A stretch of DNA of 64,000 nt from an uncultured Acetatifactor sp. (GCA_934433135.1 CAKRZO010000003.1:113511-177510), one strand, 5' to 3'; positions 1,846-63,217 are shown, counted from the first letter of the stretch. Translations and numbers: made by a program. The notes: generated from the sequence alone by a model not told the origin.

Positions 1846-2048
1846 TGATATCAGGGTCAAAAGGTCAAAAAGCCGTTCGTGCTTGCACGATTAGGCTTTT
1901 GAACTTGGGACCCGTCAAACATGAGGAAGTAGCGATTTACGCAGTAAATCAGCGGATTCCGAATGTTTTAGAATTGCGGGAGCTGCTTTGCAGCGGAGCA
2001 ATTCGTGATATCAAATGATGGGCAAAATACCTTTTGACCCTCATATCA
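1846..2048 (+). mobile_element. MITE copy 1 (203 bp, 20-bp TIRs, 5-bp TSD TAAAA)
   Basis: TIRs are TGATATCAGGGTCAAAAGGT and ACCTTTTGACCCTCATATCA. Flanked by TAAAA at 1841-1845 and 2049-2053. No ORF inside. Internal nested hairpins. Confidence 0.8.
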
Positions 2049-23317: not shown

Positions 23318-23520
23318 TGATATCAGGGTCAAAAGGTCGAAAAGCCGTTCGTGCTTGCACGATGAGGCTTTTGACCTTGGGACCCGTCAAACATGAGGAA
23401 GTAGCGATTTACGCAGTAAATCAGCGGATTCCGAATGTTTTAGAATTGCGGGAGCTGCTTTGCAGCGGAGCAATTCGTGATATCAAATGAGGGGCAAAAT
23501 ACCTTTTGACCCTCATATCA
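23318..23520 (+). mobile_element. MITE copy 2 (203 bp, about 98% identical to copy 1, TSD TGTCA)
   Basis: Same TIRs as copy 1. Flanking TGTCA at 23313-23317 and 23521-23525. Confidence 0.8.
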
Positions 23521-30431: not shown

Positions 30432-32159
30432 TTGGTTCAAAGCCAGGATCGGAAATACTGCAAATTAGGATACAAGGGAAGATCCTGTGACGAGAATCTA
30501 TATTTTGCGAGGAGGAGCCCATGCATGGTTAAGCAGAGTCAAAAAACAGGAATATTGGTAGCTGTGCTGGTCATCTGTGCTGTCCTGGCTCGCATTTCAG
30601 GAAAATTTGATGTTCTTCCCACACCGTTTGGCCTGGTTCGCGCGATGATTTATATCGGTCTGTATATTGGCTGGGGACTCTCCGTCAGCCATCGCATTTT
30701 ACCAATAAGAGTGCGCTGCTATATGATCGGTATTTCATTACTGACCGTTTTCTGGTTTGTTATACAGTCAGTAAAATATTTTTTTGTGGCTGATCCTGCT
30801 CTGATCCGGAATCTATGGTATTGGTACTATTGTCCTATGCTGTTCATACCCCTTTTTTCCGTGTTTGTTTCCCTGTCTCTGGGTAAGCCGGAAAACTTCC
30901 ATTTACCGAAATGGTCAAGGCTGTTATATCTTCCCACCCTGCTACTTCTGCTGTTGGTGCTGACAAATGATTTCCACCAGCTCGTTTTTTTCTTTCCGGC
31001 AGGAGTGGTTTGGAGCGATACACATAAGGTCTATGCGTACGGATATTATTTTGTTATCGGATGGGAAATTACCTGTGCACTGACCGCATTTGTGATTATG
31101 CTCATCAAATGCCGTGTGACACAGAGAAAAAAATACCTGCCGGCGCTTCTGCTGTCCTGCTCCATCATATACGCATTTATCTACGCCAGCGGAGCCAGGT
31201 GGATGCAGGTGATAGGAGGAGATATTACCGCAGTGCAATGCCTGCTGTTTACCGCAATGCTGGAAAGCTGCATCCGGTGCGGATTGATCCAGGCCAATAC
31301 CGGCTATGTCGAGTTATTTGAAGCAGGAACCTTCCGTGCCCAGATTGCCGATAATGACCATAAAGTTCGTTATGCCTCTGCAGAGGCATCAGTGCTTTCT
31401 GAACAAACTATGTGTGCAGCAGAGGAAGGCTCTTTCCATCTTGACAAACATACCTTGCTGAAAAGTTACCCCATCCAGGGCGGTCATGTGTATTGGCAGG
31501 AAGATATCACCGACTTCTCCGTCCTGCTTGATAAGCTGGAGGAAAACAGAGCGAAAATTGCTGAGCACAATCATCTGGAACAGGAGAATTATCGAATCAG
31601 GCTGAAAATTCATACCCTACGGGAACAGAATCGCCTCTATGATCTCCTGCAGGAAGAAACCGCCCATCAGATCAATTTGCTGAACAACCTGTTTTTCCGA
31701 TATAATGAAGAAGAAAATCCGGAAAAGCGCCATAACCTGCTTGCCAGAATTACTGTAATTGGCACTTACATAAAGCGCAGAGGCAATCTGCTCTTTATCC
31801 GTGAAAAAAGTGAAACCACCGATTCCGGAGAACTGGCTTTATGCATGGAAGAATCCTTTGCAAATTTGAAGTTAATGGGCGTAGAATGTGAGGCTAATAT
31901 TCCGAAAGGCTGCAAAATCTTTACCCGGGATGCGATTTTAGTCTATGACTTTTTTGAAAAAATAATTGAGACTGCCATAGCTGATTTGCGCTTTGTTTGG
32001 TTGAAAGCGCGTATTCTTACCGATTCGATCATCCTCCGTATGGAGGTGGAGTGCGAAAGCTCTCTTGTAGATCTTCAGGATATTTGTGAAAGCTGCTCCT
32101 TTGAGGATGGCGTATGGCGCCTTATCCTCCGCATCGGGAAGGCAGGTGAACCACTGTGA
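30432..32159 (+). CDS. Polytopic membrane sensor protein with degenerate HisKA_3/HATPase-like C-terminus (putative pseudo-kinase or co-sensor)
   Basis: About 7 TM segments, then an H-box-like block YRIRLKIHTLREQ but no clear N/G boxes. The likely start is ATG 30521/30525 after RBS GAGGAGG. The 3' end overlaps the HK start (GTGA). Confidence 0.55.
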   Translation: MVQSQDRKYCKLGYKGRSCDENLYFARRSPCMVKQSQKTGILVAVLVICAVLARISGKFDVLPTPFGLVRAMIYIGLYIGWGLSVSHRILPIRVRCYMIGISLLTVFWFVIQSVKYFFVADPALIRNLWYWYYCPMLFIPLFSVFVSLSLGKPENFHLPKWSRLLYLPTLLLLLLVLTNDFHQLVFFFPAGVVWSDTHKVYAYGYYFVIGWEITCALTAFVIMLIKCRVTQRKKYLPALLLSCSIIYAFIYASGARWMQVIGGDITAVQCLLFTAMLESCIRCGLIQANTGYVELFEAGTFRAQIADNDHKVRYASAEASVLSEQTMCAAEEGSFHLDKHTLLKSYPIQGGHVYWQEDITDFSVLLDKLEENRAKIAEHNHLEQENYRIRLKIHTLREQNRLYDLLQEETAHQINLLNNLFFRYNEEENPEKRHNLLARITVIGTYIKRRGNLLFIREKSETTDSGELALCMEESFANLKLMGVECEANIPKGCKIFTRDAILVYDFFEKIIETAIADLRFVWLKARILTDSIILRMEVECESSLVDLQDICESCSFEDGVWRLILRIGKAGEPL

Positions 32160-33448
32160 CAACATTTTATCTATCCTCCGAAACGGAACAGTCCGTATGG
32201 ATGGTCTGCCTGTTCTTTTCCCTGATCCTGGATGTGTTTCTTTTCCTTGCGTCTTCCGACCGAGGTGAGAGCAGATGGTGGAGGCTTCTGGATACCGGAA
32301 CCTTTATCGCTATTCTGATTCTGCTGTGCATTGCCGGGGATGCCTTTGGTAAAAAGGTCGATGGCCTTCCCATAAATTCTTTGCTGCCGTTCCCGATGTG
32401 GCTGCTGTGGTGCATCACAGGTATGACAGGCGCTCTGCTCCTGTGCCAGACTGCTGACTTGATCTACCGGGAGAAGCGAACACTCAGCCGCAATTCTGTG
32501 AAGAAGGCAATTGATATGCTGCCCGTAGCGATCTGCTATTTCACCCCGTCAGGTACGCTCAAGCTGTGCAATCTGCAAATGCACCGCCTGTTCCGTATGC
32601 TGGCGCAAAGGGATCTCCAGCACTTCGATGAATTGCAGCAGGCACTTACGGAGTGCGACAGGAAAAGCAATGTTGTAAGGCTTCCCGATGTAGTGCAGAC
32701 CTATCTGTTTCCCGATGGTAAGTCCTGGCGCTACTCTCAAGCAGAGATAACGGTTCCGGATGGCACTGTTTACATAGAGGTACTCTTCTCAGATATAACC
32801 GAGCTTTATGAAAAAGAGCGGATGCTCAGGGAACAGACCGAAAAGCTCCAAAAATTCTCCCGTGACCTGAAGGTTCTTTCGGATAATGTACTGACATTGA
32901 CAAAGGAAACGGAAATCCTGTCGGCCAAAACCAAACTGCATGACCGGATGGGGGCGGGCATCCTTGCCATGCGGCTGATTTTGCAGCAAGAGCAGATATC
33001 TCAGGAAGCCGCAGACAGCCTTCTATTGTTTCAAAAAGCGATCAGATCCCTTAAAAATGACAACGCAGACTCCCGGGAGTGTGATGCGTTTGCAGATTTT
33101 TTGCAGGATGCCGATACTATCGGCGTAAAGATAGAATTGACTGGTGAATTGCCAAAGCAGGGGGAAATATATCACATATTTGTGAACGCCATGCGGGAAT
33201 GTCTGACCAACAGCGTCCGCCATGCGGACGCAACGACCCTTTCCGTCATTGTTAAACACAACAGTGCCCACACTTCCATGTGTATCACAAATAATGGAGT
33301 CCCCCCTGCAAATATCGTTGTTCCGAGGGGTGGTTTGCTCAACCTTCACCGCCATGTTACAAGCTTAGGAGGTACGATGGAAATACAGTGGTCACCGGCT
33401 TTTGCGCTGATGATTGTCATTCCCGCAGAAAAGGAGGAGACAGAATGA
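32156..33448 (+). CDS. Sensor histidine kinase, HisKA_3 (NarX/DegS-like) family
   Basis: TM segments, then the H-box KLHDRMGAGIL, then HATPase_c (NAMRECLTNSVRHADAT...GGLLNLHRHV..LGG). GTG start. Confidence 0.8.
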   Translation: MTTFYLSSETEQSVWMVCLFFSLILDVFLFLASSDRGESRWWRLLDTGTFIAILILLCIAGDAFGKKVDGLPINSLLPFPMWLLWCITGMTGALLLCQTADLIYREKRTLSRNSVKKAIDMLPVAICYFTPSGTLKLCNLQMHRLFRMLAQRDLQHFDELQQALTECDRKSNVVRLPDVVQTYLFPDGKSWRYSQAEITVPDGTVYIEVLFSDITELYEKERMLREQTEKLQKFSRDLKVLSDNVLTLTKETEILSAKTKLHDRMGAGILAMRLILQQEQISQEAADSLLLFQKAIRSLKNDNADSRECDAFADFLQDADTIGVKIELTGELPKQGEIYHIFVNAMRECLTNSVRHADATTLSVIVKHNSAHTSMCITNNGVPPANIVVPRGGLLNLHRHVTSLGGTMEIQWSPAFALMIVIPAEKEETE

Positions 33449-34095
33449 AACAGGTGTTAATTGTAGAGGATCAGCGGATGCCCCGCCAATATATGGAGAG
33501 AATGATCTCCGACAGTGAAAACTATGCCCTTGCAGCCAGTATAAGCAGTGCGGCTCTTGCGCTTGCCTGCTGCAAACGGCAGATGATTGATCTGATCCTG
33601 ATGGATGTATGTACTGCCGGAAACAAGGACGGCATCGAAGCTGCCGCCGAAATCAAAGCGTTGTTCCCAAACATAAAAATCATCGTTGTCACATCAATAG
33701 TCGAGGCAGGTTTCCTGGAAAGAGCCATAGCCGCGAAGGTTGATAGCTTCTGGTACAAAGATTTAAGCCCCGAATCCCTGATTGATGTCATCAAACGCAC
33801 GATGGCGGGAGAACGTCTCTTCCCGCATGAAACACCACAAGTGAAAATAGGTCATGCCAACAGTACGGATTTGACCGCAAAAGAAATCCAGGTACTGCGC
33901 CTTGTATGTGATGGTCTGGAATACAGCGAAATTGCCCAAGCCCTTTTGATCACAGAGAGAACCGTGAAATATCATGTTTCCAATATCCTGCAAAAAACAG
34001 GCTATGCCAACAAGACCCGTCTTGCCATAGCAGTTACAGGCAAGAAATTTATTATTCCGAGCCTTCCGGAGGAGCAGGGCTTTGGCATAACCTGA
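33445..34095 (+). CDS. Response regulator, NarL/FixJ family (REC + LuxR HTH)
   Basis: MKQVLIVEDQ...LILMDV... plus LuxR-type HTH (LTAKEIQVLRLVCDGLEYSEIAQALLITERTVKYHVSNIL). RBS GGAGGAGA. Confidence 0.85.
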   Translation: MKQVLIVEDQRMPRQYMERMISDSENYALAASISSAALALACCKRQMIDLILMDVCTAGNKDGIEAAAEIKALFPNIKIIVVTSIVEAGFLERAIAAKVDSFWYKDLSPESLIDVIKRTMAGERLFPHETPQVKIGHANSTDLTAKEIQVLRLVCDGLEYSEIAQALLITERTVKYHVSNILQKTGYANKTRLAIAVTGKKFIIPSLPEEQGFGIT

Positions 34096-34239
34096 TAACA
34101 GAGCAGGCAGCTTATTTTCCGGTTTCAGGAAAGCCTGAAAAATTTTTGAAAAACTGTACTCATGGACAGTGTGGAGTATTGGCGTCTTTGTTATACTGGT
34201 ATCATCAAAAGATTATAATGAGTTACAGGAGGTCGCCTT

Positions 34240-34623
34240 ATGCGAAGAATCGTTATTGATATGCAGAGCGCCCTGTTTGCGGATGCAGTGGCCGAAGCTC
34301 TGCGCAACTTTGATTCTGATCTGGAACCGATCCTGAGCGAAAGCCCGGACAAAACTCTGTCGCTATGTGATACTGTGCTTGCTAATGTCCTGATCATGGA
34401 AGTCACCATATATACGTCCAGGACACTGGAGGAACGACTGAAAATCCGAAACGCCCTGAAAAGAGCTCATCCGGATTGCAAAATCGTGCTGATAGTGGAT
34501 GAAAACACAGAGAAAAAACTGGCGGACAAAGTACGGCAGGCCAAGAAGGACGGTCTGGTGGATAATTTTATTTACGGCTCTATTTCTTCCAGCTATCTCT
34601 CTGCTGTCATTGATGCACTTTAG
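34240..34623 (+). CDS. Stand-alone receiver-like domain with Glu at the phospho-acceptor position (pseudo-receiver)
   Basis: 127 aa. The REC-like beta-alpha pattern has VLIMEV where canonical receivers have LxxD. Confidence 0.45.
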   Translation: MRRIVIDMQSALFADAVAEALRNFDSDLEPILSESPDKTLSLCDTVLANVLIMEVTIYTSRTLEERLKIRNALKRAHPDCKIVLIVDENTEKKLADKVRQAKKDGLVDNFIYGSISSSYLSAVIDAL

Positions 34624-34668
34624 AAAAGAGACTGATGAAGTTCAGGCGAAGCATAAGAGGAGACCGAA

Positions 34669-36111
34669 ATGAAAAAAGTATTAAATTTATTTCTCGCTGA
34701 TCGGCGACTGCTTTGTGTCGCCTGCGGCGCAAATAGCCATGTGAAAAAACGGCATATTAATGCATTGCATTTTAATGCTTTTTTTTGCGCTATTATACTT
34801 CTATTGATCATAACAGGTTGCGGGAATAGAGCCGGAAAGGATCCCATCACACTGACTATGTGGCACGTCTATGGCAGTCAGACTGAATCGCCGCTTAATG
34901 TGATGATCAATGAGTTTAACCAAACGAAGGGAAAAGAACGTGGCATTGTTGTTTCCGTTGTTTCCGTCACAAATTCCACTGCTATTGACGATGTGCTGAT
35001 TGCCTCTGCCCATAACGAGCCGGGGGCGGTTCCCATGCCGGATCTGTTCACGGCCTATCCACGAGTAGCGGAAGAAATCGGCCTTGACAGACTTTTAGAT
35101 TGGGGCGAATATCTTTCAGAGGAGGAACGCTCCGCCTATGTGGATGAATTTCTGGCAGAAGGCGTCCTGGATGGACGTTTGGTTATGTTGCCTGTCGCCA
35201 AGTCAACAGAGTTGCTGTTCCTGAACAAAACGATATTTGATCGTTTTTCCGCTGACACAGGAGCATCGGAGGAAGATCTTCTCCATTTTGATACCCTTTT
35301 CGATTTGTGTTGCCGATATTATGATTGGTCAGACGGTGCGGAGATGTTTCAAATCAATGACTTCTATCATTACTTCCTGGTCAACATAGCCGGGCTGGGC
35401 GGGCAGTTCGTCCGGGACGGGAAGTTGGATTGCAACAGTAAGGAATTTGAGCAAGTCTGTCTGCCAATGGCTCGTGCGGCAATCCACGGGGGGCTCTGTA
35501 CCGGGGACGGCTATGCTTCTGACCGCTGGAAAACAGCAGAAGTTATCAGCAATATCGGTTCCACGGCAGGAATGTTGTATCTGCGGGACTATGTGACCTA
35601 TCGGGACAATACCACAGAGGAAATTGAAACAGCCGTATATCCTTATCCTGTCTTTTCCGGTGCCGCACCGGTAGTCATACAACGGGGAACCGGATTGTTT
35701 GCCATGAAAAGTGATGATGAGCGAAAGAATGAGGCTGCCGCAGTTTTCGGGAAATGGATCACGGAGGATGAACACAACCTGGACTTTGTGATCGCTTCCG
35801 GATACCTGCCGGTTACGGAAAATACCTTTTCCACACTGTTCTCTGATATGAGCATTGTTGAGAATGAAAAGTTCCGGACCCTTTATGGCGCAGTGAATCA
35901 AATGTATAACCACTACACTTTTTATCCTTTGCCACTGTATGACTCTTCCGGAGAAATACAGTCCGGATTTGAGGAGACCGTAAAGAATGTATTATCCATT
36001 GCCCACCGGGATTATATCAGCCGCATAGAACACGGGGATGACCCGGAAACAGCTATGTCGGAACTCCTTGATTCTTCGCTTTCGGAAATTCGGGACGCCG
36101 TAGAGCGGTGA
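34669..36111 (+). CDS. Extracellular solute-binding lipoprotein (family 1 SBP) with no cognate permeases nearby; probable signalling SBP
   Basis: A classic lipoprotein signal (MKKRHINALHFNAFFCAIILLLIITGC) begins at GTG 34741. The ATG at 34669 has a strong RBS, but the added N-terminus overlaps the conserved intergenic module. Confidence 0.7.
   Translation: MKKVLNLFLADRRLLCVACGANSHVKKRHINALHFNAFFCAIILLLIITGCGNRAGKDPITLTMWHVYGSQTESPLNVMINEFNQTKGKERGIVVSVVSVTNSTAIDDVLIASAHNEPGAVPMPDLFTAYPRVAEEIGLDRLLDWGEYLSEEERSAYVDEFLAEGVLDGRLVMLPVAKSTELLFLNKTIFDRFSADTGASEEDLLHFDTLFDLCCRYYDWSDGAEMFQINDFYHYFLVNIAGLGGQFVRDGKLDCNSKEFEQVCLPMARAAIHGGLCTGDGYASDRWKTAEVISNIGSTAGMLYLRDYVTYRDNTTEEIETAVYPYPVFSGAAPVVIQRGTGLFAMKSDDERKNEAAAVFGKWITEDEHNLDFVIASGYLPVTENTFSTLFSDMSIVENEKFRTLYGAVNQMYNHYTFYPLPLYDSSGEIQSGFEETVKNVLSIAHRDYISRIEHGDDPETAMSELLDSSLSEIRDAVER
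34681..34738 (+). repeat. Conserved intergenic module, copy 2
   Basis: ttaaatttatttctcgctgatcggcgaCTGCTTTGTGTCGCCTGCGGCGCAAATAGCC. Confidence 0.55.
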
Positions 36112-36129
36112 CACAAGAGAGGGAAAACC

Positions 36130-37872
36130 ATGATATTACGCCTGAAAGAAATCAAGTCCTCACTGGAGGCGGCTCAAACGCAGGGTGTTTCCATGCGCCG
36201 CCGCCTGATGATTTACCTTTTTACCATAATGCTTTTTTTCGCGCTCCTGATCGCTATGCTGCTGCTTCTTTTCGGTGCGATCGACCCCATTGGATATGAG
36301 ATTGAACGGGCTTTGGATAATCAACTGGAGAATTCTGCAAATACCATAGAACGTCAGAGTAATGATCAGGCGGCCTACGCACTTGCCTTTTCCCAACAGA
36401 TAACAGCAGCGGTCAAGGATGAACTTGCAGATGCCGGAATTACCTTCGACCAGCTTCGTAATACTTCTGATGCATTGGAATCCATGCAAGACAAGCTCTT
36501 TGAGATTGTCAATAACAACATGCTGCTTACACCTTGCAGCGGCGCATTTTGCTTTTTGAACACAACTGTCAACGATACGCTGCCTGACAAAAGCTATAGC
36601 GGGCTGTATCTGAAGTTTGCGAATCTTTATGCAGAGAACACAATACATAATAATGTTTGCCTTTTTCGCGGATTTTCCACTGTTGCGCGAGAAAAGAACA
36701 TGAATCTCCATAGCACATGGCAATTGGAAACACAAGAGGGAGTATTTCCGGAAATTGACCGACTGATGTCCTGCCAAAGTGGGAATCTTTCCGAATCCTA
36801 CTTACTTACATCCGTCTATAAACTGCCTGATACCTGGGAAAGAGTTCGTTTTCTCTGTATACCCATTCTGGATTCTCATGGAATCACAATCGGCGTGTGC
36901 GGCTTTGAGATCAGTAGTCTGTATTTTTCACTTTCTTATAAAACACTGGGAAGCGGACAGGCGCATATTTTCTGTGCCTTGCTGACAGAAGAAAAAGATC
37001 ATTATACGGGGCAGATTGCCGGAAATCAATCCGGCTATTTCCCTCTGGCTGAAAATACTTTTTCTCTTGAGAACAAGGCAGCCCTGACTACCTTCCGTAG
37101 CGGAGATACTGAATTTATCGGTAAAATCCGGGAACTGAAAATAGGAACGACTGACCATACAGTTGCTGTTATGCTCCCCGCTGCGGAATATCAGGCGCTT
37201 GTGCAGACGGTGCGGCTCAAAATTGCCGTATTCTTATTTATCGCATCTTTTGCCATATTAGTCTCTGTTTTTTGGGGCAGTAAAAAATATGTTGTACCTA
37301 TATTGAAAGACCTGGAGCGAATCAAAACTGACACAGATCGGACGCAGGGCGGATCTCACGTCCTGGAAATTGAAGATCTCTTTTCTTTCCTTGCGGAACA
37401 GGATCGGAAACATGAAGCAACTTTATCCGCTTTGAATCAAGAAAGGCTGAAGGCTCAAGGCAGACAGGAACAGCTGCAAAACGAGCTGGAACAGACTAAT
37501 AGTGATCTTGGATCCGCGCAGGCAGAAATTGCCCGGCTTGCCTATTCCAGAAAACAGGAGATCGATCCCTATGACTTTCAATATTTTCTGGAGGGAATCA
37601 GCCAGCTTACTCCGGCAGAAAGAAAAGTTTTTGATCTGTATCTTGAAGGAAAAAACACAAAAGAAATTATTACAATTTTAGGAATTACAGAAAACACATT
37701 AAAGTTTCACAACAAAAATATCTACAACAAGTTGGGCGTTTCATCCCGAAAGCAACTCCTTCGTTATGCCGCTTTAATGAAACACGCAGAAGGAACATGT
37801 TCCGCAATAACGGAGCAGGTGGAGATGCCCAAAAGAGGTAATTTGCTTTGCAGACAAAAGAAATTAAAATAA
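36130..37872 (+). CDS. Membrane-anchored one-component regulator: TM - extracytoplasmic sensor domain - TM - coiled coil - LuxR-type HTH
   Basis: Two TM helices flank a domain of about 330 aa. C-terminal LTPAERKVFDLYLEGKNTKEIITILGITENTLKFHNKNIYNKLGV. Confidence 0.7.
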   Translation: MILRLKEIKSSLEAAQTQGVSMRRRLMIYLFTIMLFFALLIAMLLLLFGAIDPIGYEIERALDNQLENSANTIERQSNDQAAYALAFSQQITAAVKDELADAGITFDQLRNTSDALESMQDKLFEIVNNNMLLTPCSGAFCFLNTTVNDTLPDKSYSGLYLKFANLYAENTIHNNVCLFRGFSTVAREKNMNLHSTWQLETQEGVFPEIDRLMSCQSGNLSESYLLTSVYKLPDTWERVRFLCIPILDSHGITIGVCGFEISSLYFSLSYKTLGSGQAHIFCALLTEEKDHYTGQIAGNQSGYFPLAENTFSLENKAALTTFRSGDTEFIGKIRELKIGTTDHTVAVMLPAAEYQALVQTVRLKIAVFLFIASFAILVSVFWGSKKYVVPILKDLERIKTDTDRTQGGSHVLEIEDLFSFLAEQDRKHEATLSALNQERLKAQGRQEQLQNELEQTNSDLGSAQAEIARLAYSRKQEIDPYDFQYFLEGISQLTPAERKVFDLYLEGKNTKEIITILGITENTLKFHNKNIYNKLGVSSRKQLLRYAALMKHAEGTCSAITEQVEMPKRGNLLCRQKKLK

Positions 37873-37882
37873 GGAATACAAA

Positions 37883-38654
37883 AATGAAATTTCCGGAAGG
37901 AAACGTTCATAATAATTCTCAAAATAATTCATATAATCATTTACAAAATAACTTTCGCAAAGGCTTGGCGGACGGAATTCCCATTGCACTTGGGTATGTC
38001 TCGGTTTCTTTTGCATTCGGTATGGAAGCGGTCTCAGGAGGGCTTCCTGTCTGGGCCGCCGTTCTGATTTCCATGACCAATCTTACCAGTGCCGGGCAGT
38101 TCGCCGGGCTTACACTGATTTTAAGCAGCGCATCCTTCCTGGAAATGGCTCTTACCCAGTTTATTATCAACCTGCGTTATTCCCTGATGTCTATCTCTCT
38201 GTCCCAAAAGCTGCACAAAGGTGTTACTCTGCCGGACAGACTTCTGATCGCTTTCGGCAATACGGATGAAATCTTTGCAGTTGCCAGTGGCCAGGATGCA
38301 GAAGTCGGAAGAAAGTACTTATATGGTCTGATCTGTATGCCTTATGTCGGCTGGGCTGCCGGCACCTTCTTCGGCGCTGCTGCTTCTGCCCTTTTGCCGG
38401 AAATCATCCGCTCCGCTTTGGGAATCGCCATTTACGGTATGTTCCTTGCCATTATCATACCCCCGGCCAGGAAAAGCCGGACGATTCTTGCCGTAATACT
38501 GACCGCAGCCGGTTTAAGCTGCCTGTTTACCTATACTCCCGGCCTTAAGAATGTATCTTCCGGCTTTGTGATCATTATTTGTGCCATTGTTGCCGCAGCA
38601 TTGGGCGCTGTTATGCGTCCGGTAGAACCGGATTCCACCGAACCTGACGCATAG
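37883..38654 (+). CDS. azlC: AzlC-family branched-chain amino acid transporter subunit
   Basis: AzlC fold (GIPIALGYVSVSFAFG...). Start ATG 37883. Confidence 0.75.
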
Positions 38655-38835
38655 GAGTAGCAGAAAATGGCATGCTGTCTACAACATACTGCCGACAACT
38701 CTTCCTGCAAGGCGTCCCTTTTCCGTTGGCATAGGGGCGGCCGGGAATGACAGACTGCCGAAAAAGTCAAAATTCGTAAGGTTTCCGGCTGGGGTAAAAC
38801 GGTAAGAAGATTTTTTCAAAATGAGGAGAACGAAC

Positions 38836-39135
38836 ATGAAAAGCTTACTTTCTTATATTGCCGTCATGGCTTTGGTTACTTATCTGGTGCGCATGGTTCC
38901 TCTGGTTCTTTTCCGTAAAAAAGTGGAAAACCGTTTCCTTCGCTCCTTCCTGTACTACATTCCCTATGCAGTACTTTCCGCCATGACCTTTCCGGCGATT
39001 TTCTCCTCCACAGCCGATTTTAAATCCGCTTTGGCAGGCACCTTAGTCGCCCTGATTCTGGCCTTTTTTGAAAAAGGGCTGCTTCCTGTGGCGCTCAGTG
39101 CCTGCGGTGCGGCATTGCTCGTGACATTCCTGTAA
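38836..39135 (+). CDS. azlD: AzlD-family branched-chain amino acid transport protein
   Basis: 100-aa hydrophobic protein. RBS GAGGAGAA before ATG 38836. Confidence 0.7.
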   Translation: MKSLLSYIAVMALVTYLVRMVPLVLFRKKVENRFLRSFLYYIPYAVLSAMTFPAIFSSTADFKSALAGTLVALILAFFEKGLLPVALSACGAALLVTFL

Positions 39136-39156: not shown

Positions 39157-40440
39157 TTACAGAAACAGCACTTCCCAGTCTTCCGGCGGATTGCCCAGAT
39201 CCGGCACATCCATGGCAACACCGCCTCTTAAAGCAGACTCGTGTGCCACAAGACCCGGAATGTTAAAGCGTGCGGCTGTCCAGATGTTGGTAGGCGACAG
39301 TTTTCCGGTCTCATAAGCCCGGCAGAAATCATCAATCATATACTTGTGCGTTCCGTTGTGTCCGTTGCGCACCACTTTATAAGACTCCGGCAGTCTGTCC
39401 ATGGACTGAATCGGTGCAGCGCCGTAAATTCCTTCTTCCCCTTCCGGTATTTCAAAAAGATCATCCCCGCCAGCCAAAGCCTGAATCGTTGTAGCATAAT
39501 CTTTTTCCAGCATACGTGTTACAATGGCCGGCTGCAGTTCTTCCGTTACATCTTTCATAATTACTTTACCATACCGACCCTCAGCCTTATCCCAGGTTGC
39601 CAGATGATGCTTTGCTACGGAAAATTCATATCCGCCGTCCGTTCCGTAGAACTGGGAAATATAAGTCTCCGGCGCCCTCCAACCTACACAGCGGTTCTCA
39701 CTGATTCTGGCAATGCCGCCGTTGGAAAGTTCCAGAAGCATGGCTGTATTTCCAAAGGGATTGTCATAATTATTGACACCGTTTTCCCCGAAAATATCCG
39801 TCCGGATGGTATCCCGGTAACCAAGCGCCATAACCCTTTTTGCATATACACCCGGCATGGTACTTAAAATACAGGACGTAGAATGAGTCGGATAGAACAT
39901 GGGCGGAATCCCCGCAAAACGCTTCCAGTCTTCACCTCCGGAACTGCGGAAGCTCTGCTCCATATTCCGGATATCATGATTGTACTGCGCTTCTCCGTAA
40001 ACAAACTTCCCGAAAGTCCCCCTGGCAAATTCCCGGCGGCAGAATAGAACAGGAGCACGATAATACCCCGTTTCTCCCATGGAATAGGTCAGTCTTGTTT
40101 TTCTTACCAGCTCTTCGATCTCCTGAATCTCATCAATGCTGACAGCGCAGGGAACCGCACTGTAAACATGTTTTCCGGCCTTCAATGCCCGGATTACCAA
40201 CGGGCCGTGGCTGAACCGCTGTGTAAAAACAGCCACGGCATTGATTTTATCGCTTGCAAGCGCCTCTTCAAAACTGTCAATGATTTTCACATCAAAGCGC
40301 TTTGCATACTCCTCTGCCCGTTCTTTACGGATGTCGCAGACATAAACCTCTTCTACCACCGGATGCAGCTTAAACAACGGTACAAAAAACTGGCTGAACC
40401 TTCCGCAACCGATGATGGCAACTTTCATCTTTTCTTTCAT
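39157..40440 (-). CDS. Gfo/Idh/MocA-family NAD(P)-dependent oxidoreductase
   Basis: N-terminal Rossmann motif KVAIIGCGRFSQ. 427 aa. Confidence 0.8.
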   Translation of the reverse strand: MKEKMKVAIIGCGRFSQFFVPLFKLHPVVEEVYVCDIRKERAEEYAKRFDVKIIDSFEEALASDKINAVAVFTQRFSHGPLVIRALKAGKHVYSAVPCAVSIDEIQEIEELVRKTRLTYSMGETGYYRAPVLFCRREFARGTFGKFVYGEAQYNHDIRNMEQSFRSSGGEDWKRFAGIPPMFYPTHSTSCILSTMPGVYAKRVMALGYRDTIRTDIFGENGVNNYDNPFGNTAMLLELSNGGIARISENRCVGWRAPETYISQFYGTDGGYEFSVAKHHLATWDKAEGRYGKVIMKDVTEELQPAIVTRMLEKDYATTIQALAGGDDLFEIPEGEEGIYGAAPIQSMDRLPESYKVVRNGHNGTHKYMIDDFCRAYETGKLSPTNIWTAARFNIPGLVAHESALRGGVAMDVPDLGNPPEDWEVLFL

Positions 40441-40484
40441 GATAATCCTCCCTCCTGCAGATGCCTTTCCGGCAAAAAAGGTAC

Positions 40485-40545
40485 GTCAAATTTCGGATTT
40501 GACACAGTGATCCCGGCTTCTTTGCAGCATCTGCGGTACAAAATG
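40485..40545 (+). repeat. Conserved intergenic module, copy 3 (GTCAAATTTCGGATTTGAC + CTTTGCAGCATCTGCGGTACAAAATG)
   Basis: Perfect 7-bp inverted repeat. The second half is more diverged. Confidence 0.5.
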
Positions 40546-41542
40546 TTATGTAACATCTTCTTTTTTCCGGAAAATCCAGCTCTTCTCGTGCATGCCGGTT
40601 TCAAACTGGGAAATGCTTAAGCTCCAGTCTTCTTTTTCCCGGAACTTTCTGACAAAGGTTTTGCCCAGCAATCCTTTTTCCTCCAAATGGATATAGCAGG
40701 CTCTGTCACAGGCTCTTCCGCAGATGGATGTGCGGTAAAAATGTTTCGCAGGCGGATAAAAATACGTGTGATCCAGGATTTCCTTTGCCTCTTCTTTATC
40801 AAAAGAGGCCGTTCCGTTGATGATCTCCATCCGATCTGCAAAACCATCATAGGCTTCCGGCGGCATAAAGGGATTCTTACTGCCGTTTGCTCCGTTATAA
40901 TAGACGGCGCATCTCCAGCAATCCGTTTTTCCTTTCGCATCAATGGCATGTCCCGGGCAGGCCTTCATACATTCCCGGCATCCGTCACAGAGGTTTTTCC
41001 TGGCAAGGGGTGTCTCTTCCAGAACCGCATCCGTCAAAATAAAGCAATAGCGGATGAAAGGACCGTAATCCTTATTTAACAGGGTATGAATAAAGCTCTC
41101 CTCCCCCAGACCGCAGGCTACGGCACACTTCAAAAAATCAATCTGGTTCTCGGCCTTTACCCCTCGATAAATATCCGTATAATCCACTTCCGGATTGGTG
41201 GAGTCCGTCTGTGTCATAATCAACTGATTACGTCTCTGCGGAATGGCTTCATACCCTTCCTCTTCCACCAGATTACTTACATTAATCAGTGCAAGCGGCA
41301 TAACCGTCTCTTCCAGATTTTCCACACCCATCGTCGTATACTGATAATAAGTGGTGCCTTCTTCCACACCCCTATAGATTCCCCGAAGAATGCGGAAACC
41401 CAGTCCGATAACGGTTTTCGTTCCCGGGTAAATTTTAAAAACCGGATCTTCGGGAAGAAATCTGGCCGCCGATGCAAATCCCACCACATCCGCATCATAA
41501 CGCAGGGCGCATTCCATGATTCTGTCTCTTAAATCGCTCACA
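40546..41542 (-). CDS. QueG/reductive-dehalogenase-superfamily Fe-S protein, paralog 1 (epoxyqueuosine-reductase-like)
   Basis: AVACGLGE, then CDGCRECMKACPGHAI (Cx2Cx2Cx3CP), then a second Cys cluster. The GTG start overlaps the paralog-2 stop (GTGA). The ORF-track TTG start reads through the RBS AAAGGAGGCGGGGG. Confidence 0.6.
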
Positions 41543-42440
41543 GTACCCCCGCCTCCTTTAAATGATGATAGCAAACTGTTTCACAGCGTTTTCCGCACAG
41601 GCACGGCACATAACCGAAATGTGTGGCCGGCAGGAATTTTAACTCCGGATAAATCTCCCGTGCGCTCTCCCGGTCAAAATGCTTTTCCCCGTTTAAAATC
41701 GCTTCCCGATCCGGACAATCCTTTAAGAAATCCTCCTTCATAAAAGGATTAGACTTATGGGCTCCTCTGTAATAGACGCTGCACTGCCAGCTGTCCACAC
41801 CCTGTTCGCTAATGGCAGCTCCCGGACAGGCGTCCCTGCATTTTCCGCACCTGTCGCACAACTCTTTTTCAAACGGCTTATCGTGGGCAAGCGGCATATC
41901 CGTAATGATAAAAACGTACCGCAGATACGGGCCGTACCTGGGCGCGATGACTTTTCCGTGCATGCCGATGCTTCCGAGCCCGCAGACAACCGCCGCCTTA
42001 TTGTAATCGATGATCACATCCGGTACCGGCTTATCCGGCGCTACCGGACTGGCAAATTCCAGTTCGTAGATTCTGGATACTTCCGGATTGGTGGATTTAT
42101 CTCCCTGAATACGAAATCCCGGAATGCTTCGCTGCAGACAGGCATCGTATCCTTCATTTTCAATCAAGGCACCCATTTTCAAGAGGAAAATTTCCGCGAA
42201 ACTCTCGTCTATGTATTTTACGCCGAGATTAACATAGTTGTAATACTGTGTCTGATCCTCCATGGCATGGTACAGTCCCTTCGGCACCTTGATCCCGAAA
42301 CCGATAATGCTTTTCGCACCCGGCAGAATGGAAAAGGGATTTCTCTGGGGATCTTCTTTCCTTAAAAGCTCCACGTCGCCGATTCCGCAGACTGCTGCCC
42401 CAAGTTCCCTTGCTTTTTGTTTGATTGTTTCTGCTTTCAT
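41538..42440 (-). CDS. QueG/RdhA-superfamily Fe-S protein, paralog 2
   Basis: AAVVCGLGS...CDRCGKCRDACPGAAI. 300 aa. Confidence 0.6.
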   Translation of the reverse strand: MKAETIKQKARELGAAVCGIGDVELLRKEDPQRNPFSILPGAKSIIGFGIKVPKGLYHAMEDQTQYYNYVNLGVKYIDESFAEIFLLKMGALIENEGYDACLQRSIPGFRIQGDKSTNPEVSRIYELEFASPVAPDKPVPDVIIDYNKAAVVCGLGSIGMHGKVIAPRYGPYLRYVFIITDMPLAHDKPFEKELCDRCGKCRDACPGAAISEQGVDSWQCSVYYRGAHKSNPFMKEDFLKDCPDREAILNGEKHFDRESAREIYPELKFLPATHFGYVPCLCGKRCETVCYHHLKEAGVL

Positions 42441-42516
42441 CTATGCTCCTGTTCCTTATTTCTCTTCGTCAAAACCAAATTGACCCCAATGTCTGAACCC
42501 TGCTTACGAGGGCTGT

Positions 42517-43599
42517 CTAACGATCCATCTTCCAGGCTTTCTTCTCATGGCGAAGCGGTTCTTGAAACCGTCCTTCCATGCAGCCGCCCTTTTTCTCCAA
42601 CATACTGACGCAGGCACGGATGCATCCGCCGCATTTGGCCATATTGTAGCCGACCCAGCTGGGAAAATATTTTTCCAGCGCGGTATAGACTTTCATGACT
42701 TCTTTTTCATTGGCCTGATCCGTCACACCTTCCAGAAGGTCTAACATTCCGTTTTCATTTTTATCAAAGACTTCTTTGGGAACAAAAGGATTGTAGTATC
42801 TTCCGCCATGAGTGTAAAAGGCATAGCAGCGCCACATATCAATGTCTCCCCATTCACAGATCTTTCCCGCCAGATTGACGCGAATGGTCTTGCCGGAATG
42901 GATGGCCGGGATACAGGAACCGGGGCATTCTCTGACACAGGCTCCGCAGCGGCGGCAAAGAGGCTTTCCGCTGTACATTTCGTCATATTCCAGTTCGGCA
43001 TCGGTAAAAATAAAGGCTACTCTCTGGAGAGGCCCGAATTCCGGTGTCAGGAGCATTTTACTCCAGCCGATTTCTCCCAGGCCGCAGGCCACCGCCGCCA
43101 GACGGAACTGAAACTGCAAATCCGGCGGAACCTTATCCGGGCTGACTTCTCTGGTATACTGCACGCTTCTGTGGTGCGCGGTTTTCCCTTTCGCATGCTT
43201 GCTGACTTCAATCTGTTCTTCCGGCGACAGGGTATTTCCCGGACTTCCGTCCATATCGGATACCGCGCCTCTGGCACCGGTGTTCCGGTACACCACTGCC
43301 TCATACCCGGCATCTTCAATCACTTTTCCCACATGGTACAATACAGCCGGCGCGTAAATTTCGTTGATGCCGCCGTAAGCCATGGACGGATACTGATAAA
43401 ACTGGGTTCCCTCTTCAATTCCTCTTTGCACTCCTCTGGGAATGCGGAATGCAAAACCGATGACACTCTTTGCATGCGGAAACAGATATCTGGGATCCAT
43501 TTCCGGCGGCGCCCCCTCAAAACGGGACATGGGTCCGATGCCGCATTTATCCGCTCCTGCCTCGTATGCCGCCTGCTTGATCCTTTCACTTGTAAGCAT
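42517..43599 (-). CDS. QueG/RdhA-superfamily Fe-S protein, paralog 3
   Basis: AAVACGLGE...CRRCGACVRECPGSCI. 360 aa. The N-terminus resembles the QueG N-domain. Confidence 0.6.
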   Translation of the reverse strand: MLTSERIKQAAYEAGADKCGIGPMSRFEGAPPEMDPRYLFPHAKSVIGFAFRIPRGVQRGIEEGTQFYQYPSMAYGGINEIYAPAVLYHVGKVIEDAGYEAVVYRNTGARGAVSDMDGSPGNTLSPEEQIEVSKHAKGKTAHHRSVQYTREVSPDKVPPDLQFQFRLAAVACGLGEIGWSKMLLTPEFGPLQRVAFIFTDAELEYDEMYSGKPLCRRCGACVRECPGSCIPAIHSGKTIRVNLAGKICEWGDIDMWRCYAFYTHGGRYYNPFVPKEVFDKNENGMLDLLEGVTDQANEKEVMKVYTALEKYFPSWVGYNMAKCGGCIRACVSMLEKKGGCMEGRFQEPLRHEKKAWKMDR

Positions 43600-43616
43600 T
43601 TTTTCTCCTTCCTGCC

Positions 43617-43672
43617 TGCTTTCCTCTTGCTGCTTTCCTCTTGCTGCTTTCCTCTTGCTGCTTTCCTCTTGC
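43617..43672. repeat. Perfect 14-bp tandem repeat x4 (TGCTTTCCTCTTGC; coding-strand GCAAGAGGAAAGCA)
   Basis: Ends 17 nt upstream of the paralog-3 start codon. Each unit carries a Shine-Dalgarno-like AAGAGGAAAG. Confidence 0.85.
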
Positions 43673-43731
43673 TTCTTTCTTCCTTTTTCCTGTCCGTTGT
43701 CTTCTCTTATTCCTGTTAAGACATGCCGTTT

Positions 43732-44748
43732 TTACGTATCTTCCCGACCTGTACCGTAGATGCTTTCTATGTTCATAAACGCATTTTCCCAGTTTGTATA
43801 GCTTAATTTATCATTCGAAAGCTCACGCTCGATTTTGCGGTTTTCCAAAAGATACGGATAAAACAGCCCTGTATGATTGGGTTCCAGCAGATCCAGCGTA
43901 CTTCCGCTGTAGCTGTGATCCTTCAGGTAAGCTTTTAAGATTTTTACCGGGCAGGAGCTGACTCTGGTCGCCAGCTTCATCGCCGGAAACAGACCCTCAT
44001 ACAGAGAAATATCCTCCGGGCGGATAAAGTTCGTCCGCTCCAGCAAAGCTCGCGCATTCCCTTCTTTTTTCAGATAGGTTCTGCAGATTCCTTCGAAAGC
44101 ATAGCCGTTATCCATAGACGCAATCTCGCTTTCATGCGCCACCAGATTATCATGGAACACATGGGCGGAACAATGATTCAGGCAGCCGCTGTTGGCCAGT
44201 GCATACAACATTTTTCCGTTTTCGTCGCACCACTTCTTCAGTTCCTTTATTTTACCGAAATCACGATTATACTCTCTCTTTAAATAGAAGCTGTCAAAGC
44301 AGTCCTTCACATAGTCCATTCCTTCTACGGTTCCGATAGACATATTGACAGAAGCTCTGACATCCAGCTCTTTAAAATTATCCTTGATAAACCGGGCAAT
44401 TAAAAGCGAGGTTGTCGTGATGCTCTGAAGACCGATCTTGTTTTCCAGATAATCCACAGTCTCTCCCACCTTATCAAAAAAGACTCTGGACTGGCTGTCC
44501 CTCCCGTAGCACATGGCATTAAAAAGGAGGTTGAACCGAATCCCTTGCGCAGAAAGTCTGACCAGATCTTCCTCCTGCCTGGCAAGAGCCTCCCAGGGCG
44601 TCATGTCCGTGCGATTCTGCTGCCTGTTGCGCCCGTTGGCAAAATCTCCCCAGGCAAAATAGACTTCATGAATCTGATCTTTCCATGTAAGGATCGTCTC
44701 CAAAAGATCCGACGACTGCCTTAACTGATATCCTACTGAGTATTTCAT
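43732..44748 (-). CDS. U32-family (RlhA/TrhP/UbiU-like) protein, putative Fe-S O2-independent hydroxylase homolog
   Basis: Blockwise resemblance to the peptidase-U32 core (EVYFAWGDFANGR versus ADAVYIGLKDDTNAR; LYALANSGCLNHCS versus FAFGSLCIMSEGRC). Assignment is tentative. Confidence 0.4.
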   Translation of the reverse strand: MKYSVGYQLRQSSDLLETILTWKDQIHEVYFAWGDFANGRNRQQNRTDMTPWEALARQEEDLVRLSAQGIRFNLLFNAMCYGRDSQSRVFFDKVGETVDYLENKIGLQSITTTSLLIARFIKDNFKELDVRASVNMSIGTVEGMDYVKDCFDSFYLKREYNRDFGKIKELKKWCDENGKMLYALANSGCLNHCSAHVFHDNLVAHESEIASMDNGYAFEGICRTYLKKEGNARALLERTNFIRPEDISLYEGLFPAMKLATRVSSCPVKILKAYLKDHSYSGSTLDLLEPNHTGLFYPYLLENRKIERELSNDKLSYTNWENAFMNIESIYGTGREDT

Positions 44749-44936
44749 GACGGTTCCCTCCTGCTCCTTTATCCGTTAAATCAGGATAAGCTTATGACTA
44801 TATCAATATTAAGCTGTTATCAAACGGTTATGGCTTGATTATATAAGAAATCCATGCTAAAATGTACGAAATACCAAAGGATTCATATAAGAAAACAAAG
44901 AATTTTAAAGAAAGAAGCAAAGGAAATCCATAGAAA

Positions 44937-45785
44937 ATGAAACTTTCCGATTTAAATCCGCATATCCGCTATGCGGCTACCCATTATAATTTTCTCCGTA
45001 AACCTTTTGACAGCATCTGCTATGACTGCCGTTTTTTTTATGTAAAAGAAGGAAACGGTACGGTTACCGCTGATGGTGAGACCTATTCTTTTTCCGAAAA
45101 CTGTGCGATTTTTTTCCCGCCCGGCACCAGATATCACTTCGATCCGGACAAAGTCTGCCGCAGTCTGGTTATGCAGGTCTTTAATTTTGATCTGATTAAC
45201 GATTATTCTTATTTGGAAAACTCTCTCGGAACAGTGAGTGAAGCTTCTTTTGAAAAAGAAAAACTGATTGCTTACGAAATGCCGGAAGAGTTAAACCGGA
45301 TTCTGTTCAAAAAAACGGCTTCCCTCCAGGAACTTCTGGATTCCTGTGCCCGGGAATTTCTGCTGCAGAACGATTTTTTCAGGGAGACTTCTTCTGCTTT
45401 GTTAAAACTTGCCCTGCTTGCTTTTCTTCAGGCAGGAACCGCAGAGGCGGAATCCGACAAAATTAAGCCTGTGCTGGAATATATCCATACTCATTATCAG
45501 GATCCGGATTTGAATAACGCTTCCATTGCGCAGTATTTTAGCTACCATCCCTATTATTTGAGCAAGCTGGTGAAGCAATACACCGGCCGGACACTTCATC
45601 AGTACCTGACCGACTGCCGCCTCCGTGCAGCCAAAGAAAACCTGATTACCACGAATGATTCCATCCATACCATTTCGTGGAAAACAGGTTTCCGTTCTGC
45701 TGCTTATTTTGTCAAAACCTTTAAGGAACACACCGGTACGACGCCCGCCGCCTACAAAAAGGAACACATACCGTTCCTGTTCTAA
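44937..45785 (+). CDS. AraC-family transcriptional regulator (cupin-like N-domain + AraC HTH), divergent from the U32/QueG-like operon
   Basis: C-terminal HTH_AraC (IHTISWKTGFRSAAYFVKTFKEHTGTTPAAYKK). Confidence 0.85.
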   Translation: MKLSDLNPHIRYAATHYNFLRKPFDSICYDCRFFYVKEGNGTVTADGETYSFSENCAIFFPPGTRYHFDPDKVCRSLVMQVFNFDLINDYSYLENSLGTVSEASFEKEKLIAYEMPEELNRILFKKTASLQELLDSCAREFLLQNDFFRETSSALLKLALLAFLQAGTAEAESDKIKPVLEYIHTHYQDPDLNNASIAQYFSYHPYYLSKLVKQYTGRTLHQYLTDCRLRAAKENLITTNDSIHTISWKTGFRSAAYFVKTFKEHTGTTPAAYKKEHIPFLF

Positions 45786-63045: not shown

Positions 63046-63217
63046 TGTGATGCCAGGCGGATTGCTCCGCGCTCTGCGCTCCCGCAATCCTACAAACATT
63101 CGGATTCCGCTGATTTGCTTTGCAAATCGCTCCATCCTCATGTTTGGGCGGGTCTCAAACTCATAAGCCTCCTCATGCAAGCATGATCGGCTTATGGAGC
63201 TTTCGACCCTGGCATCA
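63046..63217 (-). mobile_element. Diverged MITE-family copy 3 (about 172 bp) in the 5' leader of the L,D-transpeptidase gene
   Basis: Colinear with the 203-bp MITE. Five hairpins are preserved by compensatory substitutions. Its TIRs are GTGATGCCAGGG and CCCTGGCATCAC. It overlaps the ansA stop codon. Confidence 0.6.

Follow-up and report, generated by a model that had tools for sequence, protein, structure and literature searches.

A conserved operon of gut Clostridia encoding three RDH/QueG-superfamily paralogs and a distant U32 relative, a candidate for a new anaerobic enzyme

The window analysed here is a stretch of 64,000 nt from an uncultured Acetatifactor sp. (GCA_934433135.1 CAKRZO010000003.1:113511-177510), to whose full length all window coordinates refer. 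In it, five genes on the minus strand, spanning 39157-44748, lie back to back with a divergently transcribed regulator of the AraC family. They encode, in the direction of transcription, a distant relative of the U32 family (hereafter U32L), three paralogs of the superfamily that comprises the reductive dehalogenases (RDHs) and QueG (hereafter ParA, ParB and ParC), and an NAD(P)-dependent dehydrogenase of the Gfo/Idh/MocA family (hereafter Gfo). A previous model-made interpretation (the sequence-only reading) had proposed six open reading frames (ORFs) at this place, and all of them are present where it put them. The features of the locus are the following:

44937-45785, plus strand: AraC-family regulator with an N-terminal cupin sensor domain (HTH_18 76 bits, HTH_AraC 50 bits, Cupin_2 28.6 bits, AraC_binding 21.7 bits).
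44749-44936, no strand: divergent intergenic control region of 188 nt, with a GGAGG Shine-Dalgarno ahead of the U32L gene, as read in the sequence.
43732-44748, minus strand: U32L, 338 aa, distant U32-family TIM-barrel protein with five invariant Cys.
42517-43599, minus strand: ParA, 360 aa, RDH/QueG-superfamily paralog that has the eight cluster Cys plus two inserts not shared by the other paralogs.
41538-42440, minus strand: ParB, 300 aa, RDH/QueG-superfamily paralog with eight cluster Cys (RDH model 63 bits, QueG model 48 bits, PceA E = 6e-10; Cys invariant in 70/70).
40546-41541, minus strand: ParC, 331 aa, RDH/QueG-superfamily paralog with a GTG start (GTGA overlap with the ParB stop, plus GGAGG; start as in the ortholog P0243).
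39157-40440, minus strand: Gfo, 427 aa, NAD(P)-dependent dehydrogenase of the Gfo/Idh/MocA family, with which the operon ends (PF01408, 75 bits vs a cut-off of 24).

The junction between ParB and ParC reads GGAGGCGGGGGTACTGTGAGC, where the TGA of ParB overlaps the GTG of ParC (GTGA) and a GGAGG is located nine bases upstream. Because of this overlap and this ribosome-binding site, and in agreement with the ortholog P0243, whose start falls at the same position as the GTG of the window, ParC is taken as a protein of 331 aa starting at 41541 and not as the product of the 342-aa ORF that begins with TTG. The translational coupling of ParC to ParB, which had been predicted beforehand, is thus confirmed. 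The identification of the dehydrogenase and of the divergent regulator was likewise solid (75 and 76 bits, respectively), and the regulator contains both a C-terminal double helix-turn-helix (PF12833) and an N-terminal cupin ligand domain.

Is this arrangement a peculiarity of one genome? A scan of species-representative genomes returned at least 546 matching stretches and a search for U32L about 4100 clusters at 90% identity, which makes the module abundant. The 80 best loci, which were those inspected, all belong to gut or rumen Clostridia (Oscillospiraceae, Acutalibacteraceae, Faecousia, Lachnospiraceae, Christensenellaceae and several Candidatus genera), nearly all of them metagenome-assembled genomes (MAGs) and most of them uncultured, with rumen, omasum, reticulum and hindgut among their habitats. 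Using tblastn and ORF clustering on the 64 related loci with at least 4.5 kb downstream, the order U32L-ParA-ParB-ParC was found in 60, that is, with all three paralogs beside the U32-like gene, so that the co-conservation expected by the sequence-only reading goes far beyond chance. A divergent AraC gene lies less than 700 nt away in 63 of 71 related loci, and an ortholog of Gfo is present in 29 of the 52 loci with enough flank, which makes it a frequent, not obligatory, partner of the four-gene core. The locus is a real operon, and its conservation among the anaerobic Clostridia of gut and rumen is strong.

The exceptions to the core order are four: three loci with U32L alone, and L070, where a single gene (8942-9973) combines a ParA-like N-terminal half with a ParC-like C-terminal half and has lost the third Cys of CxxCxxCxxxC, apparently being what recombination or deletion has left of the three-gene array. 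No intact single-paralog locus was seen among the inspected loci. There is also a divergent variant with the order ParA, ParB::ParC fusion (P0241, 630 aa) and U32L (L088 5109-8461; L089 102-3016), in whose surroundings IclR and DeoR regulators, a short-chain dehydrogenase/reductase (SDR) and a fused E1/transketolase-like protein replace AraC and Gfo; metagenome scans with this P0241 variant and with the distant U32L relative P0434 gave no matches. Each paralog has been kept as a separate ortholog group since an ancient duplication (30-39% identity between paralogs). Since the core has withstood rearrangement and the replacement of its regulator, since ParB and ParC are fused in one lineage and since they are translationally coupled in the window, the four core proteins would form one enzyme, and we infer that U32L and ParABC assemble into an obligate complex.

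The three tandem QueG-like paralogs announced by the sequence-only reading proved to be so along their whole length. ParB and ParC align full-length with ParA at 33-34% identity (31-39% for the tblastn pairs among the three, 30-39% overall), and all of them share the same order of motifs: A-V-(A/V)-C-G-L-G, then CxxCxxCxxxCP, then a second Cys group. The eight cluster Cys (C215, C218, C221, C225, C258, C323, C326 and C330 in ParA numbering) are kept in 73-75 of 75 ParA, 70/70 ParB and 67/67 ParC orthologs, a complement that would suit two [4Fe-4S] clusters in each paralog. Pfam recognises only Fer4 motifs in them. The RDH model TIGR02486 gives partial matches of 36.4 (ParA), 63.4 (ParB) and 29.3 (ParC) bits, far short of its cut-off of 160, and the QueG model TIGR00276 gives 28.3, 48.2 and 33.0 bits, respectively, covering only model positions ~136-211 and far short of its cut-off of 200; ParB is the best RDH sequence match among the three. 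A profile built from the three families found PceA (E = 1e-14 and 5e-13), QueG (4e-12 and 7e-10) and NpRdhA (4e-9) in the PDB, with weak collinear matches also at the N-terminal G-A-D-x-V-G motif, while with a ParB-only profile the alignment to the PDB did not extend into the N-terminal active-site region. The superfamily architecture, namely a corrinoid-binding-type alpha/beta domain followed by a ferredoxin domain with eight Cys, is present and the homology spans the whole chain: at the fold level, the paralogs do belong to the RDH/QueG superfamily.

In RdhA proteins, the active-site residue after the G-P motif is an Arg (PceA Arg305) or a Lys (NpRdhA Lys488), and Arg305 of PceA is reportedly catalytic. 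The Arg aligned with it (R193 in ParA, and its equivalents) is invariant in 39/39 sequences of the three paralog families, whereas QueG has a Tyr at this G-x-x-x-(R/Y) position. The Ala of the A-G-L-G motif of RDH and QueG is replaced by an invariant Cys in all three (ParA C172, ParB C153 and ParC C143, the last in the 331-aa numbering). In ParA and ParB, an invariant Cys also takes the place of the Val that RDH has in the N-terminal motif (G-A-D-x-C-G), and the Cys of both motifs could be extra metal or redox ligands. Regarding the catalytic Asp134 and His106 of QueG, which lie above the corrin, the hidden Markov model (HMM) alignments start just downstream of them; a P-D dipeptide located ~12 residues upstream of CGLG is conserved in ParA and ParB, and it is not equated with Asp134. 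By analogy of fold, the paralogs may depend on cobalamin.

Nevertheless, the paralogs differ from both of the known branches. QueG (TIGR00276; PDB 5d08, 5d6s) is a monomer with a HEAT-like tRNA-binding domain of ~130 residues after its ferredoxin domain (PMC5175355), whereas the chains of ParA, ParB and ParC end 30, 10 and ~50 residues, respectively, past the last cluster Cys, without a HEAT-like domain, for which reason they are not QueG; moreover, there are three distinct and co-conserved proteins instead of one monomer, and their context is one of inducible catabolism. Ordinary duplicates of queG, which the sequence-only reading had named as a possible refutation, are discarded by the mutual identity of 30-39%, the missing HEAT domain and scores of 28-48 bits vs 200. 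The RdhA proteins (PceA 4uqu, 8q4h; NpRdhA 4ras, 6zxu; TIGR02486) are longer, with 440-700 aa vs the 300-360 of the paralogs. The N-termini of the latter (MLTSERIKQ in ParA, MKAETIKQK in ParB and VSDLRDRIM in ParC) have neither an RR motif nor a hydrophobic region, and no gene for an RdhB-like small membrane protein is found in the operon of the window, L004, L005 or L007. Without a twin-arginine translocation (TAT) signal or an rdhB gene they are not respiratory RdhA, and a respiratory rdhA/rdhB system was rejected as an explanation of the locus; they also lack the fused NAD(P)H reductase module of NpRdhA. Finally, unlike RdhA, they appear to be hetero-oligomeric, have a U32-like partner and occur in a carbohydrate context.

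The relationship of U32L to the U32 family is more distant. The claimed homology failed in its direct form, since the window protein reaches only E = 0.14 and 11.8 bits against PF01136 (Peptidase_U32), below the gathering cut-off of 22.4, while 10 of 26 family members give weak matches (best E = 0.021) and phmmer with the U32L sequence finds nothing in the PDB even at E = 10. It did hold through intermediates: a profile search of 1.84 billion representatives returned 1318 relatives, and distant full-length members at E ~1e-31 pass the Pfam threshold (P0434 with 38.1, P0436 with 37.7 and P0431 with 25.3 bits). The fold of U32L is a TIM barrel of the U32 type. Five Cys (C80, C174, C189, C193 and C222, arranged as C174-X14-C189-X3-C193 with X28 to C222) are invariant in 85/85 sequences, but the CX6C pair of the general U32 motif is absent, and in distant relatives the invariance is limited to C189, C193 and C222, with C80 close to it. 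The described motifs are CX6CX15CX3/4C for U32 proteins in general and CXnCX12CX3C for UbiV (PMC6747719), both of which the CX14CX3C of U32L, with its far-upstream Cys, recalls. The remote members above the Pfam threshold and this UbiV-like spacing are the grounds for the distant U32 relationship, and the invariance of the five Cys those for predicting that U32L probably binds a [4Fe-4S] cluster; in the structural model, the low-confidence part is the loop with C189 and C193, as would be expected of an empty cluster site. Several distant relatives (P0289, P0322, P0417, P0434, P0426 and L089 1991-3016) carry a C-terminal CX3CX2CX2C, a possible extra Fe-S cluster, that is missing from the window protein and its close orthologs. 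Compared with UbiU/UbiV, TrhP and RlhA (PF01136; 5d88), U32L thus stays under the Pfam threshold and lacks the CX6C pair, the C-terminal domains of U32 proteins and an SCP2 or RNA-binding partner; its partnership with RDH-like proteins is unprecedented for the family, for which a 2024 review of gut Fe-S enzymes lists no activity other than the hydroxylation of quinones and RNA (PMC11574389).

The four core proteins are not equally constrained. Over 66 loci, the mean pairwise identity is 85.6% for ParA, in front of 67.2% for ParB, 66.9% for ParC and 57.5% for U32L, and the clusters at 90% identity have 695 members for ParA and 9-14 for the adjacent genes. A recent horizontal transfer as the cause of the high ParA identity is excluded, since the four-fold degenerate third positions are saturated in all four core genes, with a near-random identity of 0.29-0.35 in the same loci. 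The ParA-specific inserts (~106-123 and ~232-248) are highly conserved and of low confidence in the model, and they would fit interface or active-site loops. In view of its sequence conservation in the face of saturated synonymous sites, we take ParA as the putative catalytic and structural centre of the module. Constraint this strong, at family-level divergences, has no ready explanation in an inducible accessory enzyme.

As for Gfo, it has 43 relatives in the PDB, the best of which is the C-glycoside 3-dehydrogenase DgpA (E = 5e-18), with sugar, cyclitol and dihydrodiol dehydrogenases also among the closest. DgpA works in gut Clostridia, where it oxidises a hydroxyl to a ketone and in this way activates a glycoside before an unusual bond cleavage. 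Both proteins have the Rossmann domain in common; Gfo differs in its 427 aa and divergent C-terminal half, in having Fe-S partners instead of the DgpB/C sugar-isomerase-like lyase, and in not being obligatory in its module. The flanks vary between genomes, which indicates that the module is self-contained. Recurrent or co-oriented neighbours include DUF5696, DUF4874/4832, glycoside hydrolases (GH3, GH20, GH38, GH78 and GH31), DUF5054 and a PGA_cap protein, together with EamA and YgjV transporters in related loci. Glycoside hydrolases and sugar dehydrogenases point to small-molecule catabolism and not to RNA modification, and this carbohydrate and small-molecule neighbourhood, together with the AraC/cupin regulator, favours the view that the module encodes an enzyme of inducible catabolism, acting on a polyhydroxylated compound from the diet.

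Some accessory genes occur in subsets of the loci. A cupin of ~121 aa, with weak Cupin_2, WbuC and ureidoglycolate-lyase matches, is found in 30 loci (e.g., L038 10050-10415 and L007 17834-18199), between ParA and ParB or after Gfo, and is absent from the window (no tblastn match). A 331-aa radical-S-adenosylmethionine (SAM)/SPASM gene appears in five loci, in four of them (L050, L053, L063 and L085) between U32L and ParA, the fifth being L082, and a membrane protein of the YgjV family often goes with it. The best match of the radical-SAM gene, TIGR04317 (“tungsten cofactor oxidoreductase radical SAM maturase”, 248 bits vs a cut-off of 380), hints at cofactor or protein maturation. After ParC, the loci L005, L006, L007, L011, L025, L030 and L077 have a beta-lactamase-family gene (~491-494 aa), whose product aligns full-length with the NCBIfam family “3-succinylated cholic acid synthase” (187 bits, cut-off 800); this suggests that some versions of the pathway include an acyl-transfer or esterase step. 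A bile-acid substrate is unlikely, given that this gene is in only 8 loci and that many loci come from rumen, omasum and reticulum MAGs.

Beyond the operon, the plus strand of the window at 30432-39135 encodes a sensor-like protein of the seven-transmembrane type, a LuxR-type response regulator and another protein of the LuxR family, as well as a solute-binding protein and the pair AzlC/AzlD; other genomes do not keep any of these beside the module. The only Rfam matches in the window are three full-length copies (125-137 bits) of the Clostridiales-1 small RNA (RF01699), at 1846-2013 (plus), 23318-23485 (plus) and 63048-63217 (minus), with no cobalamin or preQ1 riboswitch; three copies in 64 kb suggest a Clostridiales chromosome with a dispersed repeated RNA element. 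Neither B12 genes nor RNA-related genes were found near the module, and an anti-phage defence system was discarded for lack of a PADLOC match.

Taken together, we tentatively propose, with a confidence that falls a little short of even, an AraC/cupin-controlled catabolic operon whose product is a four-protein Fe-S enzyme, a hetero-oligomer of U32L and ParABC that carries out the O2-independent reductive cleavage of a carbohydrate- or cyclitol-derived compound. The anaerobic redox pathway suggested by the sequence-only reading fits Fe-S proteins of the RDH/QueG superfamily next to a U32 relative. According to this proposal, the substrate would induce the operon through the AraC/cupin regulator in strictly anaerobic gut Clostridia; U32L would be a TIM barrel with one Cys-ligated [4Fe-4S] cluster, and ParA, ParB and ParC an obligate hetero-oligomer of ancient paralogs, each of which would hold a corrinoid-binding-type domain and a pair of [4Fe-4S] clusters. 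The electrons, of low potential and probably donated by ferredoxin, would pass along as many as six [4Fe-4S] clusters of ParABC to an active site with a corrinoid or an Fe-S cluster, whose most likely place is in ParA where it meets U32L. The reaction would be an O2-independent two-electron bond cleavage, that is, a reductive C-O cleavage (deoxygenation) or, less likely, a C-X cleavage, a reductive chemistry for which the models are the C-O reduction of an epoxide by QueG and the C-X reduction by RdhA. Its substrate would be a polyhydroxylated small molecule derived from a carbohydrate or cyclitol, which the Gfo (or SDR) dehydrogenase, where present, could activate by converting a hydroxyl to a ketone, unless Gfo processes the product instead.

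In favour of this proposal speak the RDH/QueG homology along the whole chain, the eight conserved Cys and the invariant Arg of the PceA Arg305 type. Several points weigh against it. A corrinoid has to be assumed with no cobalamin genes or riboswitch nearby, and we know of no sequence motif in the RDH/QueG fold that is diagnostic of B12 or that defines base-off corrinoid binding. The invariant Cys in AVxCGLG could signal a different cofactor chemistry, the AlphaFold2 confidence is low in the ParA loops 65-78 and 107-151, expected to form the active site, Gfo is absent from 23 of the 52 loci, and the operon of the window has no transporter. Furthermore, the characterised U32 Fe-S enzymes are hydroxylases and not partners of reductases (PMC6747719, PMC10990095, PMC11574389).

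That all of these enzymes (UbiU/UbiV, TrhP and RlhA, in the works just cited) are hydroxylases is also the best argument for U32L itself being the catalyst, an O2-independent hydroxylase with an organic oxygen donor (e.g., prephenate) from which ParABC, its corrinoid chemistry lost, would remove two electrons as a six-cluster conduit. The UbiV-like Cys arrangement and the many invariant polar residues of U32L are in line with this, and the electron acceptor of the known U32 hydroxylases is not established; however, ParA is the most constrained of the core proteins and U32L the least, what the paralogs retain goes beyond a ferredoxin module and includes the entire N-terminal corrinoid-type domain as well as the RDH-type Arg, and a plain ferredoxin would do as a wire, so that we regard it as unlikely. 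Organohalide respirers commonly have multiple rdhA paralogs per genome, a precedent for three independent monomeric reductases that would act on different but related substrates in a catabolic island, without forming a complex. The known enzymes of the superfamily are, in fact, monomers or homodimers (QueG is a monomer, PMC5175355), but the fixed order of all three genes in 60/64 loci, the GTGA overlap, the P0241 fusion, the strongly unequal conservation and the absence of intact single-paralog loci among those inspected, L070 being a deletion chimera, make such independence improbable.

Less probable still is a role in the modification or salvage of RNA or nucleosides, related to queuosine or to pyrimidine hydroxylation, which had been the leading idea of the sequence-only reading and is the part of it that was not supported. 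QueG, TrhP and RlhA do act on RNA, and a conserved macromolecular substrate could be the reason why ParA is so extremely conserved; nonetheless, the paralogs lack the HEAT-like tRNA-binding domain and score 28-48 bits vs 200 with the QueG model, the regulation is of the inducible AraC/cupin type, the neighbours are glycoside hydrolases, sugar dehydrogenases and other sugar enzymes, and a patchy distribution limited to gut Clostridia is atypical of housekeeping RNA modification. We give the least credence of all to a non-respiratory (catabolic) reductive dehalogenase for dietary or natural organohalides, in spite of the fact that the best sequence and fold matches are PceA-type dehalogenases and that the Arg aligned with PceA Arg305 is invariant: the RDH model gives 29-63 bits vs 160, neither a TAT signal nor an RdhB gene nor an NAD(P)H reductase module like that of NpRdhA is present, and the carbohydrate context and wide rumen and gut prevalence fit a common dietary substrate rather than organohalides.

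Every copy of these proteins is annotated as “hypothetical protein” or “ferredoxin”, no family in Pfam or NCBIfam covers any of the four core proteins, and no description of the gene set was found in the literature on RDH-like, QueG-like, U32, gut and cobalamin themes; the statement of the sequence-only reading that no characterised pathway matches it thus agrees with what Pfam, NCBIfam and the literature returned. The parts belong to known superfamilies, and what is new is the RDH-like architecture, presumably hetero-oligomeric, and its partnership with a U32 relative. Going one step beyond the reductive four-protein enzyme proposed above, one possibility, if a somewhat doubtful one, is a new class of hetero-oligomeric metalloenzymes in which a U32-type Fe-S barrel would bind and activate a polyol of the cyclohexane or pyranose type, while the ferredoxin-driven reductive dehydroxylation of this polyol would fall to a heterotrimer of RDH-like proteins, equipped with a corrinoid and as many as six [4Fe-4S] clusters. 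If this were true, the module would supply the enzyme that is lacking for a major transformation, so far unexplained, in the guts of herbivores and humans, such as the anaerobic deoxygenation or aromatisation of plant cyclitol acids (e.g., quinate and shikimate) toward benzoate and hippurate, or the deoxygenation of keto-sugars that glycosides release. These substrates are named as speculation, which is consistent with the distribution in rumen, omasum and hindgut and with the use of prephenate, a cyclohexadienol, by U32 enzymes.

In any case, the operon is a good candidate for a new anaerobic enzyme. It joins two superfamilies with unusual O2-independent chemistry, the corrinoid/Fe-S reductases and the U32 Fe-S hydroxylases, in a combination of which we found no description, and in the RDH superfamily a hetero-oligomer would be a novelty. 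The conservation of ParA, at the level of a translation factor, implies a highly constrained and probably important reaction, and the identification of its substrate would add a reaction to the carbon metabolism of gut and rumen and widen the scope of both superfamilies.

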